From: Candidatus Woesearchaeota archaeon | GTDB lineage: Archaea; Nanobdellota; Nanobdellia; Woesearchaeales; ARS49 | Direction of reading: 5' to 3' | Assembly (NCBI GenBank): GCA_014729505.1 | Contig: WJJS01000001.1 | Span: 12,938 to 76,937 of the forward strand | DNA length: 64,000 nt | Shown: positions 7,492 through 54,433 of the stretch, piece by piece | How the letters are laid out: every line of letters begins with the position of its first letter | How positions within the stretch are numbered: the stretch's first letter is position 1 | Notes under the pieces: model-generated | What the model was told of the DNA's origin: nothing | The model's input: only the letters and a program-made list of their open reading frames with translations | The model's database searches: none | Program-made: the position numbers and the translations under genes

Positions 7492-8320
7492 AAACGCCGG
7501 GAGTAAGAAGTTCCCGCGTAGATAAAGGACAGACAAACGAGGGCAACACTGGTTCTCCAGTACTTCGATTTTCAATTGTCGCGTCATGTCGTGATTGATC
7601 TCTTGAAAGAATGGCTCCGCGTGTTGCACGAAAATGAGTATACAAACGCGCAGCAAGTTCTTGCTCTGTAGGACCAACAATAGTATATTGTTGTCCATTG
7701 GACAATAAATGAACCTGCAACGGCATCTTATACGGCAAAACCAGTTCAGGACCATGAGCACTATTATCAAGATCCTGAGCAGACGCTGCAGAACCATTAG
7801 GATGCGAATGCCAGGTCAGTACATACTCGTGATTCGTTTGAGGACGACCATACGTGTGAGGCAAAATATGTTGACGAGCAACATGTTCAAGAACCTTACA
7901 ATCATCATCACTCCATTCATTTTTTGAAAGCAAAGGACGCGCTTTATCAATCGCTTCTACAACGCCAGTATTACCGGTACGCACGTGCACCCGGCGGGCG
8001 CGAGCAAACAGGCTCTTCATATTGTCAAGATGCTGTGCAGAACCCTCACGTAATTCATTGACATACTCGATCAAGTCAAGAAATTCATTACGCAAAGGAA
8101 CAACAATATAGCGTCCGTTACTCTCGCGGACAATACCGCCAGTTTCATACCCTTGTGTCAACTCGTGATTAGTCTGACTAAGCAAATCACTGCGTGTTTG
8201 ACTGTCCTCAAGCATTTGCATAACGCGAGGACGAATCTCGTCAAGAGAAATGGTGTGCTCGGGCGCGGTACAACCCGCAAGACCGGCCAGTACTATTGTT
8301 GCTAAACGTCGTCCACTCAT
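7472..8320 (-). CDS. Secreted lipoprotein, hypothetical (signal peptide + lipobox LAGC); contains HSHP...D motif
   Basis: N-terminus MSGRRLATIVLAGLAGCTAPE = signal peptide with canonical lipobox L-A-G-C; immediately downstream of lgt in same orientation. Confidence 0.5.
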   Translation of the reverse strand: MSGRRLATIVLAGLAGCTAPEHTISLDEIRPRVMQMLEDSQTRSDLLSQTNHELTQGYETGGIVRESNGRYIVVPLRNEFLDLIEYVNELREGSAQHLDNMKSLFARARRVHVRTGNTGVVEAIDKARPLLSKNEWSDDDCKVLEHVARQHILPHTYGRPQTNHEYVLTWHSHPNGSAASAQDLDNSAHGPELVLPYKMPLQVHLLSNGQQYTIVGPTEQELAARLYTHFRATRGAILSRDQSRHDATIENRSTGEPVLPSFVCPLSTRELLTPGVSIERRE

Positions 8321-13367: not shown

Positions 13368-15044
13368 ATGGACCTGACAGATCTCATACGGGAACTGGCA
13401 CTGCGCAATGCCGCAAAATTTGGCAAAGCAAACGCTAACGCTGTACTGGGATCAGTACTCAAAGCACGACCAGAACAAAAACAACACATCAACCTTATCA
13501 AACAACACGTACAAGGCATTGTCAATGAAATCAACACTCTTGACAGCAAGACATTACAACAAGCAATCGCCGCGTTACCAGAAAAAGAAAAAGAAACGCC
13601 AAAAGAAAAAACACTCAAAGACCTGCCAAACGTCAGTAATAGTGTCATCATGCGCTTTGCACCATCACCCTCAGGACCGCTGCACATAGCACACGCTTAT
13701 GGACTCAGTCTGAATTATCATTATGCAAAGCGATACCATGGCACATTCCTCTTTCGCATAGAAGACACGAACCCAGAAAACATCTATGCGCCTGCATATG
13801 ATATGATGGTCGAAGATGCACAATGGCTTACGAATAACGGCATAGATCATGTCATCATACAATCAGACCGGTTAGGCCGGTATTATGACATTGCAGAACA
13901 ACTAGTCGACAAAGAGAAGGCATACGTTTGTACATGCAACAGCGATGAATTTCGCACACTTCTCTTCAAAAAAACAGCCTGTCCATGCCGCACGGCAGGA
14001 GTCAAAGAGCACCTTAAACGCTACGCAGCAATGTTTTCAAGCTACAAACCAGGAGAAGCCGTCTTACGAAGCAAAACAGATATCACACACAAAAATCCGG
14101 CCATGAGAGATTTTCCACTCATGAGAATAAACGAGCATCCACATCCGCGCACAGGCACAGAACACCGCGTTTGGCCACTCATGAATCTTGCAGTATTTGT
14201 CGACGACATGGATTACCACGTCACACACATCATTCGAGCAAAAGAACACCGTGATAATGCAGCACGACAAGAATTTCTCTACAACGCGTTTGACCATCCA
14301 GTACCAGTAACGCTCTTTGTTGGACGCATCAATTTTACTGATATGAAAGTTAGCTGTAGTGCAACAAAAGCAGCAATAGAAGAAGGAAAATATACGGGAT
14401 GGGAAGATATACGATTACCTTTTCTACGACCATTACGACGACGAGGATACCAACAAGAAGCATTTATGAAATACGCCATAGAGATAGGCATCAGTCAAGC
14501 AGACAAAACAGTCAAAAAAGAAGAATACTTCAAAACACTCAATGCATTCAACAAAGATATTATCGATGCACATGCGAACCGCTACTTTTTCTTGCACGAT
14601 CCCGTACCGGTACACATTACCGACGTGGAACAAAAAACAATAACAATAGCTCTACATCCCGATGTCAAAGACCGAGGACTGCGAACCTTTAAGATTAACG
14701 GACACTTTTTACTAGAACGAAAAGATGTAGAACAATTACCAGACGGATTGCACAGGCTCATGGACTGCCTGAACTTTATCAAAAAAGGACAACAATTCAC
14801 CTTTCATTCATTTGCCTATGACGTGTTCAAACAAGAAGGACAACACATACTCCACTGGCTACCAGCACAAGACACACAACAAGTAATTGTACACCAGCCC
14901 GACGGAAAACAATTACAGGGAGTTGGAGAAACAACATTACAGGAAGTAGAAATCGGATCACTCATACAGTTTGAACGATTCGGATTTGCACGACTGGACG
15001 CTCACACAAGACAAGCACTAGAATTCTGGTATGCTCACAGATAA
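13368..15044 (+). CDS. gltX: Glutamyl-tRNA synthetase, archaeal type
   Basis: RFAPSPSGPLHIAHAYG (HIGH region) and overall class I GluRS architecture, 558 aa. Confidence 0.85.
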   Translation: MDLTDLIRELALRNAAKFGKANANAVLGSVLKARPEQKQHINLIKQHVQGIVNEINTLDSKTLQQAIAALPEKEKETPKEKTLKDLPNVSNSVIMRFAPSPSGPLHIAHAYGLSLNYHYAKRYHGTFLFRIEDTNPENIYAPAYDMMVEDAQWLTNNGIDHVIIQSDRLGRYYDIAEQLVDKEKAYVCTCNSDEFRTLLFKKTACPCRTAGVKEHLKRYAAMFSSYKPGEAVLRSKTDITHKNPAMRDFPLMRINEHPHPRTGTEHRVWPLMNLAVFVDDMDYHVTHIIRAKEHRDNAARQEFLYNAFDHPVPVTLFVGRINFTDMKVSCSATKAAIEEGKYTGWEDIRLPFLRPLRRRGYQQEAFMKYAIEIGISQADKTVKKEEYFKTLNAFNKDIIDAHANRYFFLHDPVPVHITDVEQKTITIALHPDVKDRGLRTFKINGHFLLERKDVEQLPDGLHRLMDCLNFIKKGQQFTFHSFAYDVFKQEGQHILHWLPAQDTQQVIVHQPDGKQLQGVGETTLQEVEIGSLIQFERFGFARLDAHTRQALEFWYAHR

Positions 15045-17605: not shown

Positions 17606-17640
17606 GGGCCGGTAGCTCAACCTGGTAGAGTGCTCCGTTG
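17606..17640 (+). repeat. Duplicated 5' fragment (35 nt) of tRNA-Ala(GGC)
   Basis: Identical to 17730-17764; preceded by ttttttaaag TATA-like box at about -30. Confidence 0.8.
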
Positions 17641-17696
17641 CGATGCTTTCGCCCATCGACAGCGAGGTCCGATCTCACTTGCGTGAGATCCGACAG
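17641..17696 (+). other. Conserved structured element, copy 1 (CGATG..CATCG hairpin + GGTCCGATCTCAC-TTGC-GTGAGATCCGAC hairpin)
   Basis: Shares motif with 20047-20108 and 22430-22462, with compensatory base changes in the hairpin stem. Confidence 0.5.
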
Positions 17697-17729
17697 TTTT
17701 ATGAATAGGTGTTTTTAGTATACGTTTAT

Positions 17730-20031: not shown

Positions 20032-20046
20032 TGGTGGCGGAGTGGC
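20032..20046 (+). repeat. Duplicated 5' fragment of the tRNA-Met locus (4 nt flank + tRNA nt 1-11)
   Basis: tggtggcggagtggc identical to 20132-20146. Confidence 0.8.
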
Positions 20047-20108
20047 ATATTCCGATGTTTTCCGCCATCGACACGGAGGTCCGATCTCGCTTGCGCGAGA
20101 TCCGACGG
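20047..20108 (+). other. Conserved structured element, copy 2
   Basis: atattCCGATGTTTTCCGCCATCGACACGGAGGTCCGATCTCGCTTGCGCGAGATCCGACGG; matches 17641-17696 with covarying stem positions. Confidence 0.5.
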
Positions 20109-20135
20109 TAGTCAAGTAACACGAGTATCATTGGT

Positions 20136-22355: not shown

Positions 22356-22413
22356 AAGAAAACCACGTTCAAATCCGTAAACTTCTTAACTGGGGCATTT
22401 TATGTGCATATAT

Positions 22414-22462
22414 GCCGACGTCGCATACTCTGCGTATCGATGTTTTCCGCCATCGACACGGA
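22414..22462 (+). other. Duplicated 5' 14 nt of tRNA-Ser followed by conserved element core (CGATGTTTTCCGCCATCGACACGGA), copy 3
   Basis: gccgacgtcgcata then ctctgcgtatCGATGTTTTCCGCCATCGACACGGA; identical core to 20054-20078. Confidence 0.5.
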
Positions 22463-22539
22463 CGCGCGGCATTCGCTATTGCTCAGCCCCGCAAGACACA
22501 AATCTTAAAAGGCAGTTCCTTTGTTACTCACTTATTCTT

Positions 22540-22718
22540 GCCGACGTCGCATAATCTGGTACGCTAAAAAACGCATTAGCGTTTTTGGCGCGCCGAAAAG
22601 CTTTGCTTTTCTCGCGTTGCGCCGGTCTTGAAAACCGGTTCCCTTGGGTGCTCGAAAATCTGCGATTTTCGGCACGTACAAAAGCTGACGCTTTTGTCCG
22701 TATCCCGTTTCAAATCCG
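22540..22718 (+). pseudogene. Pseudo-tRNA-Ser: nt 1-22, ~56-nt insertion, anticodon arm + variable arm start, ~51-nt insertion, degenerate T-arm lacking 3' acceptor
   Basis: Segments 22540-22561, 22618-22649, 22701-22718 match the intact tRNA-Ser at 22756; no complementary 3' acceptor strand. Confidence 0.45.
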
Positions 22719-22755
22719 TAAACTTCTTAACTAGTGGCATTTCATGCGCATATAT

Positions 22756-22837
22756 GCCGACGTCGCATAATCTGGTATTGCGCCGGTCTTGAAAACCGGT
22801 TCCCTTGGGTATCCCGGTTCAAATCCGGGCGTCGGCG
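22756..22837 (+). tRNA. tRNA-Ser (TGA), type II with long variable arm
   Basis: Acceptor GCCGACG/CGTCGGC, 3-bp D stem, anticodon stem CCGGT/ACCGG loop CTTGAAA, variable arm TTCCCTTGGGTAT, T-arm CCCGGTTCAAATCCGGG, discriminator G. Confidence 0.85.
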
Positions 22838-22891
22838 TTTCTATGACGCGAAAGCGTCATCCCATTTTTGAAGTAGTGATTTGAACCGGGG
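22833..22891 (+). repeat. 59-nt direct repeat copy 1 (last 5 nt of tRNA-Ser + 54 nt trailer); second copy at 23751-23809
   Basis: Exact match cggcgtttctatgacgcgaaagcgtcatcccatttttgaagtagtgatttgaaccgggg. Confidence 0.8.
22841..22868 (+). terminator. Perfect hairpin ATGACGC-gaaa-GCGTCAT followed by cccattttt T-run, 3' of tRNA-Ser
   Basis: Seen directly. Confidence 0.4.
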
Positions 22892-29703: not shown

Positions 29704-29963
29704 AAAAAAATATCATATTCATAGCTAGCGGATTGCTTCTTTTGTTACTATTTTTTATTGGCGCAAGCATATGGGCAACACATTATTTCGCCCAGAACAT
29801 TGAAAAAGAACTCGAAGGAGCCCGAGGATGTCGCACAAGTTTTGAACGATGCTACAACGAATGCACAGACTATATGCGAGAACAATGTGTACATACTTGT
29901 TTAAGTAACAGATATTTGTGTGAAGAAAGAACATTGGGTTGGGAAGCGCCGACGCCAGGGTAA
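29700..29963 (+). CDS. Small Cys-rich membrane-anchored protein, paralogue of previous
   Basis: MKKNIIFIASGLLLLLLFFIG TM + CRTSFERCYNECTDYMREQCVHTCLSNRYLCEE; ATGA overlap. Confidence 0.45.
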   Translation: MKKNIIFIASGLLLLLLFFIGASIWATHYFAQNIEKELEGARGCRTSFERCYNECTDYMREQCVHTCLSNRYLCEERTLGWEAPTPG

Positions 29964-29974
29964 TATTTAAATAC
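29961..29974 (+). promoter_or_regulatory. TATA-like box (taatatttaaatac) about 30 nt upstream of tRNA-Gly
   Basis: Seen in sequence. Confidence 0.35.
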
Positions 29975-29999
29975 TGACACAAGACGTTCAAAGAATTAC

Positions 30000-30107
30000 G
30001 CGCAGATAGTACAATGGCTAGTATAGCGGCCTTCCACTGCACGGCAGAAGCAAGCCGTTGATCCGGGTTCGAAAATGAATCTTTCATCGAATGTCCCGGT
30101 CTGCGCA
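30000..30107 (+). tRNA. tRNA-Gly (TCC) with two introns: 16 nt at anticodon loop and ~20 nt inside the T-loop
   Basis: Acceptor GCGCAGA/TCTGCGC + A; D-arm TAGTACAATGGCTAGTAT; anticodon stem GCGGC/GCCGT loop CTTCCAC; T-stem CCGGG...CCCGG enclosing 27 nt (7-nt loop + intron). Confidence 0.65.
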
Positions 30108-30111
30108 TTTT

Positions 30112-30614
30112 TTACTTTTTACAACGAGCATTGTTTTGTCTCCAAACGCAATATGCTGCATATTTTTCCTTCTTTATGTGGTGATTAAAACCGATGAGTT
30201 GGAAAAGTAAATAGTCTTTAGCTGGAATTCGTAGAGTAAAACAATGCTTGTGTTTTGGATTGGTCGAATATCTTGTGTGCCACGTAGAACTTATGCCTTC
30301 TGCAAGAAGCATTTGTTGAACTTGACGTCTTGCATCCTCGTTGGGATTATAGGCAATGATGCTACTTCTATAAACGGCACCCTCATCATCGAAGAACGCT
30401 CTTAACCCGTCCGCCTTAGAATTTTATCTTTTGTGATTTCTTTCGAGATTGTCCAAGGGCGATCAAGAGTATATCCAAGTTCACATATCTTCTCAAAAAG
30501 AAGTCGATTAGCTACTTGAAGGCGATGTTTATTCCTTCCAAAATAGATGTAGATTCCCGGCAAAACTTTTCGAACTGCCGCGGCTGCAGAACAGTTGAAC
30601 ATAGGAGCAGACAC
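30112..30614 (-). pseudogene. LAGLIDADG-family homing endonuclease pseudogene (N-terminally truncated, one frameshift near 30402)
   Basis: Two overlapping minus-strand ORFs join as ...IYIYFGRNKHRLQVANRLLFEKICELGYTL... / LRAFFDDEGAVYRSS...RYSTNPKHKHCFTLRIPAKDYLLFQLIGF (second LAGLIDADG motif LRAFFDDEGAV). Confidence 0.5.
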
Positions 30615-40009: not shown

Positions 40010-40324
40010 ATGGGACATACCGTATGGAGCCAACGGATGAATGCAGAGCGCATCATCACAGAACTACTTCGTTACAAGAAAGCATTGCGAAGCGAACAAC
40101 AAGCACTGTTTGACGAATTACTGAAACGATCCATGAATCATCTCGGTACCATAAGTTACGCAAACAGCATGCACACCTGGGCATTACTGCTCTTATCAAT
40201 ACTACTAGAACAAGAACAACGCATAAAGAAACTAGAACATGTGGTTAATAGATACCTATCAAAAAAAGAACAAGATCGTCGTGTGGCTGAAAACGAAAAC
40301 GACGAATATGCATCGAACCTATGA
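40010..40324 (+). CDS. Hypothetical helical protein
   Basis: ORF in operon; 4-nt spacing from previous gene, overlaps next. Confidence 0.35.
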   Translation: MGHTVWSQRMNAERIITELLRYKKALRSEQQALFDELLKRSMNHLGTISYANSMHTWALLLLSILLEQEQRIKKLEHVVNRYLSKKEQDRRVAENENDEYASNL

Positions 40325-42794
40325 GTACTCTGTCACACTCTACGCACACGAAGATGCACGAGAATTCCTTACAACGAACAAGATTGCTTTTACAGAACAA
40401 CTCAAAAAAGATCCTTTTCGCAACAAGAAACATGTTCTTGCCATAACGTTATCATGCGAACGACTCGCACCATTTGTAAGATGGTTTGAACTCGGCACCA
40501 AACACCGCATACCGCTTTACAATGCAGATATCACGCCGGAACAACGCTTTCTTTACGAGAACAAGCTAGTACCGTGCAGCAACGTGCGAGACGTTGATGG
40601 GAGACTTGTACACGTCAACGAATCCGCACCACCGCTAAGCACTGTTCATTTGCGATGCGCCACACAAGGACCTATTACACGATTAGAATACCAGGATCAC
40701 ACTATCGTAGGCGAGGAACGAGAAGTACTCGCGCATTTTACGCAACGCTTCAGACAGGACGATCCAGATGTACTACTTATGCGACGAGCATACAAAGCAG
40801 TACCACATCTCTTTGAACGGTTACGTGCGAACGGATTGCACGTGCCTTTTCATCGATGGGATGAGATACCGCTGCGCCACCGCGGCGGCAAGACACACTT
40901 CAGTTACGGAAGAGTATATTATCAAGATCACTCGTTTCAACTGCGAGGACGATTACTCGTTGACACGGCAAGCAGTGTAGGATCAACATGCTCTGTACCT
41001 GCAATCATCGAACTTGCACAGCTCACAGGCACTCGATTCCAACGCGTAGCAGCACGCAGTTTCGGTGCCTCATTTCAACTTCAACTCGTCAAAGAACTGC
41101 TCGCCCAAGATCTGCTTGTGCCATACAAGGAAAAACCCTTTGATGAACCGCTGCGCATGACAGAGTTATTCGACGCAGACAGAGCAGGACATACCTTTGA
41201 TCCTCAACTAGGATTTCACAATGATGTTGTAGCAATAGACTTCTCAAGCATGTATCCATGGATCATCCACAACTACAACATCAGCGCAGATACCATACTC
41301 ACAAAAAAAGGAAAGAAGACCAAGATTCCTGCAGTACCAATTGATGTAACCACACAATATCAAGGAGTGATACCAAAAGCAATCAAACCATTGTTAGATC
41401 GACGCATGTACTACAAAAAACATCCGACGCCGGAAAACAAACGACGAGCAATAGGACTAAAAACACTGCTCGTGACCTGTTATGGTTATCTGCGATTTCG
41501 CGAATTTAAAATGGGACTTGCCACATCACACATGGCAATTTGTTCATACGCGCGAGAACTCCTCCTACAATCAGCAACGCTTGCAGAAGAACAAGGCTTT
41601 CGCGTCATTCACGGCATCATCGATTCACTCTACATATCAAAAAAAGACATTACCACAACAGAAGTCGAAACATTTCGAAAAGAACTAGAACACATGAGCG
41701 GTATACCCGTTGCCTGCGATGGCATCTTCAAATGGATCGTGTTTCTTTCACGACGACATGACAACACTGTCGGAGTGCCGGCCCGTTATTTTGGCGCATA
41801 TAAAAATGGTGGCATTAAAGCAAGAGGTATTGAAGTACGACAATCGAGTGCGCCGCTACTTATACGACGATTCCAACAAAACGTGTTAGAAGAGCTCGCA
41901 GCGTTTTCAACGAAAAGAGCGATACAGGATCACTTGCCACAAGTCATGAAACGCGCACGAGCAGTCCTGCACGATCTGCCTGCGACGCCACGAGAAGAAC
42001 TGTGTTGCAGAATACGCATCAGTAAGACCACGTATTCTCGAAACATTCCACAACGGCAAGTGATACGCTTGTTAACACAACAAGGGAGAGACATTATCGC
42101 TGGACAGGTCATACGGTTCTGGTACAGTGCGAATGGACCGTTACTAGTCGATATGACTGGAAGGCCAGACTACAAAAAATATCGCGATTTGTTATTACGC
42201 GCAATACACTCAGTGTACCAGCCTTTCGGTTATACTACCAAACAACTACAACACCTCCTATTAGACGAATATCAAAGCGTTCTGCAAGATTTTGCGCGAC
42301 AACAGATCCGCTACGAATACGTGCCTATGAAAAAACACTATGCACAAAAACGAGGACTGTCAGAGAGAATCCTGCGACAACGACTGGAACGACAAGGATG
42401 GACGGTGTGGCGCGGCGGCAGCATACATATTACTCGTTATGAAGAACTGTATCCCAACGTACGACGAAAGTACGAATTACTCATCCGTCTGCTTGACGAT
42501 CATAAGCCAGACACAAAAGAAATACTGCAATATTATTGCATGATACAGCACGGCATGCCAGATTTTCTCTGCTACAAAAATGGACGATTCAAATTTGTTG
42601 AATGCAAATTGCAATACGAGCAATTAAGTCATCGACAAAAACGCTGCATTATGAAGCTACAAGACCTGGGATTTGATGTGGAAGTTCACAAACTCGTTGA
42701 CAAACGCACAAAAATGAGAGAGGCACTAGTTGACATGTTTACCAATTGCAAAATAGTACGAGAACGACAACTAGCCCTACTCTCAACATGGTGA
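40239..42794 (+). CDS. Family-B DNA polymerase-like protein lacking recognisable 3'-5' exonuclease motifs, motif C variant IIDS, fused to C-terminal VRR-NUC nuclease domain (start uncertain, 40239 or 40306)
   Basis: Motif A AIDFSSMYPWII, motif B KTLLVTCYGYLRF, motif C region RVIHGIIDSLYI (DTD replaced by IID), KxY KKYRDL; C-terminus GMPDFLCYKNGRFKFVECK...LSHRQKRCIMKLQDLGFDVEV = VRR-NUC (PD-(D/E)xK) pattern; no DxE/YxxxD exo motifs found. Confidence 0.7.
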   Translation: MWLIDTYQKKNKIVVWLKTKTTNMHRTYEYSVTLYAHEDAREFLTTNKIAFTEQLKKDPFRNKKHVLAITLSCERLAPFVRWFELGTKHRIPLYNADITPEQRFLYENKLVPCSNVRDVDGRLVHVNESAPPLSTVHLRCATQGPITRLEYQDHTIVGEEREVLAHFTQRFRQDDPDVLLMRRAYKAVPHLFERLRANGLHVPFHRWDEIPLRHRGGKTHFSYGRVYYQDHSFQLRGRLLVDTASSVGSTCSVPAIIELAQLTGTRFQRVAARSFGASFQLQLVKELLAQDLLVPYKEKPFDEPLRMTELFDADRAGHTFDPQLGFHNDVVAIDFSSMYPWIIHNYNISADTILTKKGKKTKIPAVPIDVTTQYQGVIPKAIKPLLDRRMYYKKHPTPENKRRAIGLKTLLVTCYGYLRFREFKMGLATSHMAICSYARELLLQSATLAEEQGFRVIHGIIDSLYISKKDITTTEVETFRKELEHMSGIPVACDGIFKWIVFLSRRHDNTVGVPARYFGAYKNGGIKARGIEVRQSSAPLLIRRFQQNVLEELAAFSTKRAIQDHLPQVMKRARAVLHDLPATPREELCCRIRISKTTYSRNIPQRQVIRLLTQQGRDIIAGQVIRFWYSANGPLLVDMTGRPDYKKYRDLLLRAIHSVYQPFGYTTKQLQHLLLDEYQSVLQDFARQQIRYEYVPMKKHYAQKRGLSERILRQRLERQGWTVWRGGSIHITRYEELYPNVRRKYELLIRLLDDHKPDTKEILQYYCMIQHGMPDFLCYKNGRFKFVECKLQYEQLSHRQKRCIMKLQDLGFDVEVHKLVDKRTKMREALVDMFTNCKIVRERQLALLSTW

Positions 42795-53901: not shown

Positions 53902-54025
53902 GCCCTGGTAGTGTAGTGGCCTATCATGAAGCCCTGTCGAGACGAAAACCGTCGCATAAAGGCTTCGACCCGGGTTCAAAGACGGCGTCGGGTTAACCGA
54001 TCCGCTGAAATTCCCGGCCAGGGCG
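53902..54025 (+). tRNA. tRNA-Asp (GTC) with two introns (20 nt at anticodon loop, ~31 nt in T-loop)
   Basis: Acceptor GCCCTGG/CCAGGGC + G; anticodon stem AAGCC/GGCTT loop CTGTCGA; T-stem CCGGG...CCCGG enclosing 38 nt. Confidence 0.65.
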
Positions 54026-54063: not shown

Positions 54064-54179
54064 GGGCCGGTAGCTCAGCCTGGTAGAGCACCTGACTTTT
54101 ATGAAAGTCAAGGACATCAGGTGGTCGCGAGTTCAAAACGATCCCGCGTATGCGGTTCGTGAACGTCTCGTCCGGCCCA
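54064..54179 (+). tRNA. tRNA-Lys (TTT) with two introns (~14 nt at anticodon loop, ~28 nt in T-loop)
   Basis: Acceptor GGGCCGG/CCGGCCC + A; D-arm TAGCTCAGCCTGGTAGAGC; anticodon stem CCTGA/TCAGG loop CTTTTAT; T-stem GCGAG...CTCGT enclosing 35 nt. Confidence 0.65.
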
Positions 54180-54187
54180 TTTTTACT

Positions 54188-54433
54188 ATGGCAAAAACAA
54201 CCTTCGACGTATCCAAACACGTGCTTGTACCAAAGCACAAAAAGGTGAGTGAAAAGGAGAAAAAAGAATTACAAGAGCGATACTCCCCCTCACTAAAAGA
54301 ACTGCCGCGCATCCTACAAAACGATCCTGCAATACAACATCTCGACATCAAAGAGAACGACGTTATCAAGATCGAACGCAAAAGCATGACTGCAGGAACG
54401 ATCACTTTCTATCGGAGGGTATCGAATGGTTGA
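54188..54433 (+). CDS. rpoH: DNA-directed RNA polymerase subunit H (Rpo5)
   Basis: MAKTTFDVSKHVLVPKHKKVSEKEKKELQERYSPSLKELPRILQNDPAI...TAGTITFYRRV; track ORF start 54101 rejected because it overlaps tRNA-Lys. Confidence 0.85.
   Translation: MAKTTFDVSKHVLVPKHKKVSEKEKKELQERYSPSLKELPRILQNDPAIQHLDIKENDVIKIERKSMTAGTITFYRRVSNG

Follow-up and report, generated by a model that had tools for sequence, protein, structure and literature searches.

Two inserts interrupt a short stretch at positions 30000–30107 of the DNA studied here (the entire 64,000-nucleotide stretch, hereafter the window), which had been proposed from its letters to be a tRNA-Gly(TCC) gene with two introns, one of them inside the T-loop. 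Are these inserts introns that the archaeal tRNA splicing machinery could remove from a working gene, or do they mark a gene that has been lost?

A tRNA-Gly(TCC) gene in three exons

On the raw sequence, neither ARAGORN (default or -i) nor the Rfam tRNA model at its gathering threshold called the tRNA-Gly gene, and in E-value mode the unspliced Rfam score was 13.5 bits (25.4 bits for the tRNA-Lys gene described below). When 30037–30052 and 30074–30093 were taken out, ARAGORN called a 72-nt tRNA-Gly(tcc) with a regular cloverleaf, and with the T-loop insert alone taken out, ARAGORN -i called tRNA-Gly(tcc) i(37,16). The proposed two-intron structure is thus borne out by a complete ARAGORN tRNA, and splice-aware calling returns a full tRNA instead of a pseudogene. 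On sequence grounds, 30000–30107 is very probably a tRNA-Gly(UCC) gene that functions in a Woesearchaeota-like DPANN archaeon and contains two predicted protein-spliced BHB introns. Its parts are as follows.

29966–29973, plus strand: TATA-box-like element TTTAAATA, a putative archaeal promoter centred ~30 nt upstream of the tRNA 5' end (read from the letters)
30000–30107, plus strand: complete tRNA-Gly(TCC) gene, 108 nt, spliced product called by ARAGORN
30000–30036, plus strand: exon 1, tRNA positions 1–37, anticodon TCC at 30033–30035 (manual parse, ARAGORN and BHB enumeration)
30037–30052, plus strand: intron 1, 16 nt, at the canonical 37/38 site (strict hBHBh' with h' of 3 bp; ARAGORN i(37,16))
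30053–30073, plus strand: exon 2, tRNA positions 38–59, comprising the anticodon stem 3' strand, variable loop TGAT, T-stem CCGGG and T-loop TTCGAA (manual parse, ARAGORN and BHB enumeration)
30074–30093, plus strand: intron 2, 20 nt, at the non-canonical 59/60 site in the T-loop (strict hBHBh'; central helix backed by covariation)
30094–30107, plus strand: exon 3, comprising T60, T-stem CCCGG, acceptor TCTGCGC and discriminator A (manual parse, ARAGORN and BHB enumeration)
30108–30113, plus strand: run of six T just 3' of the discriminator, a putative archaeal terminator (read from the letters)

The 5' part of the gene reads GCGCAGA TA GTAC AATGGCTA GTAT A GCGGC CTTCCA, followed by intron 1 (CTGCACGGCAGAAGCA), and the 3' part reads A GCCGT TGAT CCGGG TTCGAA, intron 2 (AATGAATCTTTCATCGAATG), T CCCGG TCTGCGC A. 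The 72 nt of the mature form include discriminator A73, and CCA is not encoded. The identity elements of tRNA-Gly(UCC) that we used as criteria belong to general tRNA biology. The spliced letters contain G1:C72, C2:G71, G3:C70, A73, G18G19 and a 4-nt variable loop; the anticodon TCC lies in a 7-nt loop (CTTCCAA) with T33 and a purine at position 37, and the T-loop, also of 7 nt (TTCGAAT), fits TTCRAAT.

Reading the gene in this way reproduces the initial annotation in two respects, namely a 16-nt anticodon-loop insert, which follows CTTCCA at 30037–30052, and a T-stem, CCGGG (30063–30067)/CCCGG (30095–30099), that encloses 27 nt and not 7. The T-loop insert that it described is also present, but its division into TTCGAAA, 17 nt and TGT missed the 5' junction by one nucleotide and the 3' junction by two; BHB geometry gives TTCGAA, 20 nt and T.

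A mechanically called ORF of 117 aa (29755–30108, minus strand) overlaps the tRNA-Gly gene and is probably spurious. Likewise, one of 110 aa (54101–54433, plus strand) overlaps the tRNA-Lys gene, and its start is probably mis-set. Gene callers blind to the two tRNAs could annotate these overlapping 117-aa and 110-aa ORFs as proteins.

BHB motifs at both predicted splice sites

Candidate introns were enumerated with a strict BHB script (outer helix of at least 2 bp, 4-bp helix, 3-nt bulge, inner helix, and the mirrored arrangement on the 3' side), spliced after the second bulge nucleotide, and kept only if the product was a full-length ARAGORN tRNA. Applied to the tRNA-Gly gene, this procedure returned exactly two hBHBh' introns, 30037–30052 (37/38) and 30074–30093 (59/60), each with two opposite-strand 3-nt bulges, a 4-bp helix and flanking helices of at least 2 bp. 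In the intron 1 motif, the anticodon stem is the outer helix, the central helix is CUUC:GAAG (C32-U33-U34-C35 with intron GAAG), CA|C and CA|A form the bulges, and UGC:GCA (3 bp) forms the inner helix. In the intron 2 motif, the T-stem is the outer helix, the central helix joins U54-U55-C56-G57 with CGAA at the intron 3' end, the bulges are AA|A (A58-A59|A) and UG|U (U-G|U60), and the inner helix is AUGA:UCAU (4–5 bp).

MFE folds, computed for the complete precursor and for the T-arm alone, gave the same succession of helix, 3-nt bulge, helix and 3-nt bulge. In the T-arm, the MFE fold favours a 5-bp central helix, UUCGA:UCGAA, formed by a one-A slip along the A-run, and cutting in that register would leave an 8-nt T-loop. 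A relaxed alternative, a 22-nt intron at 30073–30094, is still accepted by ARAGORN as tRNA-Gly, with a 5-nt T-loop. Splicing in either of these other registers has folding energy or ARAGORN acceptance in its favour. Nonetheless, we regard it as very improbable, given that 30074–30093 alone meets the strict BHB rule and gives the universal UUCGAAU loop, and that 25 of 29 homologous junctions accommodate this register with all four central pairs (see below). We infer that the 4-bp register is the functional one for intron 2, because it alone obeys the BHB rule and yields UUCGAAU, and not on grounds of energy.

Could the T-loop insert instead be removed by a ribozyme, for instance as a group I-type self-splicing intron, without being an EndA substrate? 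Group I introns are indeed known from archaea, among them Woesearchaeota and Pacearchaeota (PMC6125680), and Patescibacteria have them in tRNA genes (PMC13011429). However, 20 nt is too short for a group I or group II core, Rfam shows no intron family at the tRNA-Gly gene, and the junctions fit the BHB rule exactly, so that we give this explanation next to no credence. Membership of group I or II was likewise rejected for both introns, which measure 16 and 20 nt against a core of well over 100 nt and have no Rfam match.

The same layout in tRNA-Asp and tRNA-Lys

The architecture had been said to recur in tRNA-Asp and tRNA-Lys, with T-stems enclosing 38 and 35 nt, respectively, and BHB/T-arm searches recovered it in both genes with those spacings.

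53902–54025, plus strand: tRNA-Asp(GTC) with 37/38 and 59/60 introns (BHB/T-arm searches and manual parse)
53940–53959, plus strand: tRNA-Asp intron at 37/38, 20 nt, with a C.U mismatch in the central helix
53981–54011, plus strand: tRNA-Asp intron at 59/60, 31 nt, with an A.C mismatch at the first inner (h') pair
54064–54179, plus strand: tRNA-Lys(TTT) with 37/38 and 59/60 introns (BHB/T-arm searches)
54102–54115, plus strand: tRNA-Lys intron at 37/38, 14 nt, strict BHB
54138–54165, plus strand: tRNA-Lys intron at 59/60, 28 nt, strict BHB

The 59/60 placement is TTCGAA|intron|T in tRNA-Gly and TTCAAA|intron|T in tRNA-Asp and tRNA-Lys, with the T-stem as outer helix. BHB structures, on which the T-loop reading depended, are therefore found at these junctions as strict 3-4-3 motifs in tRNA-Gly and tRNA-Lys, and with one mismatch in each of the two tRNA-Asp motifs. 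Both additional genes were also missed on the raw window by ARAGORN (default and -i) and by Rfam at the gathering threshold, which leaves three of the seven window tRNA genes invisible to ARAGORN and the Rfam tRNA model. The other four are Ala(GGC) and Ser(TGA), which are intron-free, and Ser(CGA) and Tyr(GTA), with one canonical intron each.

Recurrence in Gly, Asp and Lys is not due to chance, because the discovery pipeline returned three matches in the real window and none in any of 30 dinucleotide-preserving window shuffles. Strict-BHB and relaxed sweeps over the entire window yielded no further credible hidden tRNAs; their only extras, from ~108,000 trial splices, were two weak matches within coding regions. 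Resemblance among the three 59/60 introns of the window did not exceed the null.

Prevalence and covariation of 59/60 introns in relatives

The related set comprised 80 loci from an EF-2 search (1.2 Mb in total), in which ARAGORN -i found 52 tRNA genes, 28 having a canonical intron. Another 24 genes, which became full tRNAs once a 59/60 insert was removed, came from a T-arm search in which no pairing between T-loop and insert was demanded. Introns at 59/60 thus occur in 24 of 76 tRNA genes (32%), in 13 of 35 tRNA-bearing loci and in many isotypes. Introns elsewhere in hidden genes of the relatives number only about three, all in the D-arm; these hidden tRNAs, each with a strict-BHB intron after approximately nt 16–22, are the following.

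L018, 574–682, plus strand: hidden tRNA with D-arm intron
L028, 6358–6466, minus strand: hidden tRNA with D-arm intron
L053, 13949–14092, plus strand: hidden tRNA with D-arm intron

The 59/60 junction cores of 29 distinct genes were aligned in a fixed register (alignment A1), with central-helix pairing not required in their selection; T-stem pairs, which the search had imposed, were excluded as evidence. Pairing in the central helix reached 96.6% of cells across these junctions. Position 57 formed A-U with the intron in 19 genes, G-C in five and G-U in one, and was unpaired in four (n = 29). Twenty-five junctions had 4/4 central pairs, and the remaining four had 3/4, with AGAA, making them mildly relaxed. 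The covariation score was reached by none of 500 shuffles, and the true register beat every slid register. The intron 3' end YGAA pairs with T-loop nt 54–57 and covaries with position 57. The inner helix h' was paired in only 56% of cases in the fixed-register count, in which its offsets vary, and is unusable for covariation.

A scan of metagenomes, in which only the exons flanking the Gly T-loop insert were fixed, returned three contigs representing two distinct tRNA-Gly(TCC) genes with exons near-identical to those of the window. One (L081) carries introns of 26 nt at 37/38 and 33 nt at 59/60; the other (L082/L083), whose anticodon loop is uninterrupted, has one of 21 nt at 59/60 and is also preceded by a TATA-like element (TTTATAAA) ~30 nt upstream. 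The 59/60 introns of both are unrelated in sequence to that of the window and retain the YGAA-AG|T junction. These contigs (32–53% GC) have no genes in common with the window; they represent homologous genes, not the same locus.

The metagenomic genes also bear on whether the tRNA likeness arose by chance, or whether the region belongs instead to the 117-aa minus-strand ORF, which does overlap the locus. The presence of the same exons in three independent contigs, a cloverleaf that is complete once spliced, and shuffles in which no match appeared in 30 trials leave this reading with a vanishingly small probability, and we retain the interpretation as a spliced tRNA-Gly gene.

Within the relatives, L008 (6247–6583, minus strand) holds an orthologous Asp-Lys pair with 59/60 introns at the same positions and of different sequence. 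Three introns are apparently present in its tRNA-Lys(TTT), at ~21/22 (~38 nt), 37/38 (20 nt) and 59/60 (25 nt). In the Woesearchaeota MAG L011, the 59/60 introns of tRNA-Ala(GGC) (8101–8252, plus strand) and tRNA-Glu(CTC) (14131–14283, plus strand) are 83% identical, compared with a shuffled maximum of 69%; this similarity indicates that a 59/60 intron was duplicated or transposed between isotypes.

Damaged tRNA copies and a hairpin module

The window contains other tRNA-derived sequences. In a nest at 22371–22838 (plus strand), a leader/promoter region of ~44 nt is duplicated (22371–22414 and 22711–22754), and an intact tRNA-Ser(TGA) gene (22755–22838) is accompanied by a second copy (22541–22720) that has all exon blocks, two inserts of ~50 nt, and a truncation after the T-loop. 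BHB introns were ruled out in this copy, whose inserts lack BHB geometry; we regard it as a probable pseudogene or scar of recombination, and used it as an internal negative control for BHB geometry.

Such damaged copies, together with the silence of standard tools on tRNA-Gly, count in favour of the latter also being a pseudogene, inactivated by two inserts that are never removed. We judge this to be highly unlikely. In contrast to those of the Ser copy, the Gly inserts have exact 3-4-3 geometry and their excision restores 7-nt loops; every exon feature is intact, and the TATA box and T-run flank the gene. Moreover, a 59/60 intron is retained in related genes with its junction conserved, although its sequence is unrelated. 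A functional gene with removable introns remains our reading.

Elsewhere, duplicates of the 5' parts of tRNA-Ala(GGC), tRNA-Ser(CGA) and tRNA-Ser(TGA) lie upstream of these genes (35, 11 and 14 nt identical, respectively), and each is followed by a shared module of ~55 nt, CGATGYTTTCSSCCATCGACASSGAGGTCC-GATCTCRC-TTGC-GYGAGATC-CGACRG.

17606–17700, plus strand: duplicate and module region
20036–20110, plus strand: duplicate and module region
22415–22462, plus strand: duplicate and module region

Copies of the module differ in its 8-bp hairpin by a compensatory change from A:T to G:C, and the third breaks off after 25 nt. In the fold of the Ser(CGA) copy, a 12-bp minihelix-like hairpin precedes that of the module. 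There was no copy of the module in the 83 related loci and no Rfam match over its coordinates. These elements may have been left behind by tRNA-targeted recombination or integration, or may constitute a small structured RNA.

Host lineage and splicing endonuclease

The EF-2 encoded in the window is 67–77% identical to proteins of MAGs labelled Candidatus Woesearchaeota, Nanoarchaeota or Nanobdellota, and on the basis of this similarity the window genome is a Woesearchaeota-like DPANN archaeon. This placement agrees with the DPANN-type lineage that had been suggested from the tRNA introns. The window has a GC content of ~43%, and the neighbours of the tRNA genes are archaeal housekeeping genes (S10, EF-1alpha, EF-2, S28e, L7Ae and a thermosome subunit), with what is apparently an RNA polymerase subunit cluster at ~54.4–61.5 kb, judged from ORF order and sizes. 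In an ORF of 851 aa (40239–42794, plus strand), Pfam shows a family-B DNA polymerase domain and, at the C-terminus, a VRR-NUC nuclease domain. The EF-2 match spans 2.7–3.0 kb in many relatives (L001, L003, L005, L007, L008 and others) compared to 2.17 kb in the window, which suggests that EF-2 carries an insertion, e.g., an intein, in many Woesearchaeota but not in the window genome.

No EndA gene was found in the window or the 83 related loci by tblastn with a M. jannaschii EndA probe identical to PDB 1A79, nor among 6376 ORFs scanned with a catalytic-domain HMM derived from five PDB sequences, and Pfam revealed none in 20 ORFs of the window. Nor did the window or the related loci contain a splicing ligase gene. 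The initial annotation took the T-loop introns to imply an endonuclease of relaxed specificity. Such an enzyme in the window genome is plausible; the motifs alone do not demand broad specificity, because those of tRNA-Gly and tRNA-Lys are strict 3-4-3. Both tRNA-Asp motifs and four of the 29 aligned junctions are mildly relaxed. According to two studies (PMC3239211, PMC5829648), alpha4 and alpha'2 EndAs need strict motifs, and increased tRNA disruption goes with (alpha-beta)2 and epsilon2 EndAs and apparently with DPANN alpha4 enzymes that have an 'L3' insert; many DPANN have alpha4 EndAs with this extra 'L3' loop, as the latter of the two reports.

Proposed processing of the precursor

The pre-tRNA would probably be transcribed from the TATA box ~30 nt upstream and end at the T-run. 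In the precursor, each intron is predicted to pair with the adjacent exon, forming a 4-bp helix between two 3-nt bulges. Anticodon-loop nt 32–35 would pair with the 3' end of intron 1, the anticodon stem being the outer helix, and T-loop nt 54–57 (UUCG) would pair with the 3' end of intron 2 (CGAA), with the T-stem as outer helix. An archaeal EndA could recognise each BHB and cut after the second bulge nucleotide; an RtcB-type ligase may then join the three exons, restoring the 7-nt loops CUUCCAA and UUCGAAU, and CCA would be added enzymatically. We infer all of these steps, from transcription through cleavage and ligation to the addition of CCA, from what is established for tRNA splicing in archaea. 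Because the T-loop is sequestered in the precursor, the D-loop/T-loop tertiary contact would form only after removal of intron 2. A BHB/hBH intron at 59/60 is an experimentally cleaved substrate in ARMAN-2 (PMC3239211, PMC5829648).

Significance and comparison with known systems

The tRNA-Gly gene with two introns is a clean example of a known phenomenon and not a new one, and the known splicing mechanism is unchanged by it. Two aspects are modestly new, namely the concrete members that a Woesearchaeota-like genome supplies (Gly, Asp and Lys) and the indication that 59/60 dominates among non-canonical sites in the lineage. Tentatively, and with slightly less than even confidence, we propose that the 59/60 intron is the dominant lineage-wide non-canonical class in Woesearchaeota (about one-third of sampled tRNA genes), that it could spread between isotypes, and that it explains much of the 'missing tRNA' in DPANN MAG annotations. 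Spread between isotypes is conceivable because the docking site (T54-R57 and the T-stem) is universal to tRNAs; if this holds, every tRNA could form a BHB with any intron that ends in YGAA-NN. Since three of the seven window genes and ~32% of those sampled in relatives are invisible to ARAGORN and Rfam, tRNA sets of Woesearchaeota MAGs will be undercounted without BHB-aware splicing at 59/60. The data add a densely sampled DPANN lineage to the co-evolution of tRNA introns and splicing endonucleases and point to 59/60 as a preferred site, where the exon partner is the universally conserved T-loop. No description of the prevalence of 59/60 introns in Woesearchaeota was found in the literature searched.

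Compared with the canonical 37/38 intron of archaea and eukaryotes, intron 1 is an ordinary member, with a strict BHB and nt 32–35 in the central helix; nothing sets it apart except its short length of 16 nt. tRNAscan-SE 2.0 BHB models were trained on Crenarchaeota/Euryarchaeota and on Thaumarchaeota (PMC8450103). In the survey by Kaneta et al. 2018 (PMC5829648), a marked rise in tRNA gene disruption is described for DPANN lineages with L3-loop alpha4 EndAs, and incomplete DPANN tRNA sets are said to need manual curation. That survey covered one Woesearchaeota genome, and the text consulted gives no per-position account for this group, whereas the hidden genes are identified here as 59/60-intron genes.

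Thermoproteales resemble the present case in having up to three BHB introns per tRNA and non-canonical positions (Sugahara et al. 2008 and Fujishima et al. 2010, as cited in PMC4033280 and PMC8450103), and in having paralogous introns in different tRNAs of one genome, comparable to the Ala/Glu pair (83%) of L011. They differ in being Crenarchaeota with an (alpha-beta)2 EndA and many insertion positions, whereas a single non-canonical site dominates the Woesearchaeota sample (59/60, with 24 genes compared to about three with D-arm introns).

The closest parallel is ARMAN-2 (Ca. Micrarchaeum), in which pre-tRNA-Pro(GGG) and pre-tRNA-Cys(GCA) have 59/60 introns (Fujishima et al. 2011, PMC3239211), and its 59/60 substrate was reused in PMC5829648. 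Insertion positions in ARMAN-2 overlap the major sites of species with (alpha-beta)2 endonucleases (PMC3239211). The two systems share a DPANN host, the T-loop site at 59/60, a BHB-type motif (strict hBHBh' in ARMAN-2 tRNA-Pro) and several introns per gene. The differences are that the host here is Woesearchaeota-like and not a member of Micrarchaeota, that the isotypes are Gly, Asp and Lys, and that the 59/60 intron is joined with one at 37/38, not 53/54. Finally, tRNA-Cys of ARMAN-2, whose enzyme is epsilon2, uses a relaxed hBH motif, whereas tRNA-Gly and tRNA-Lys have strict ones.
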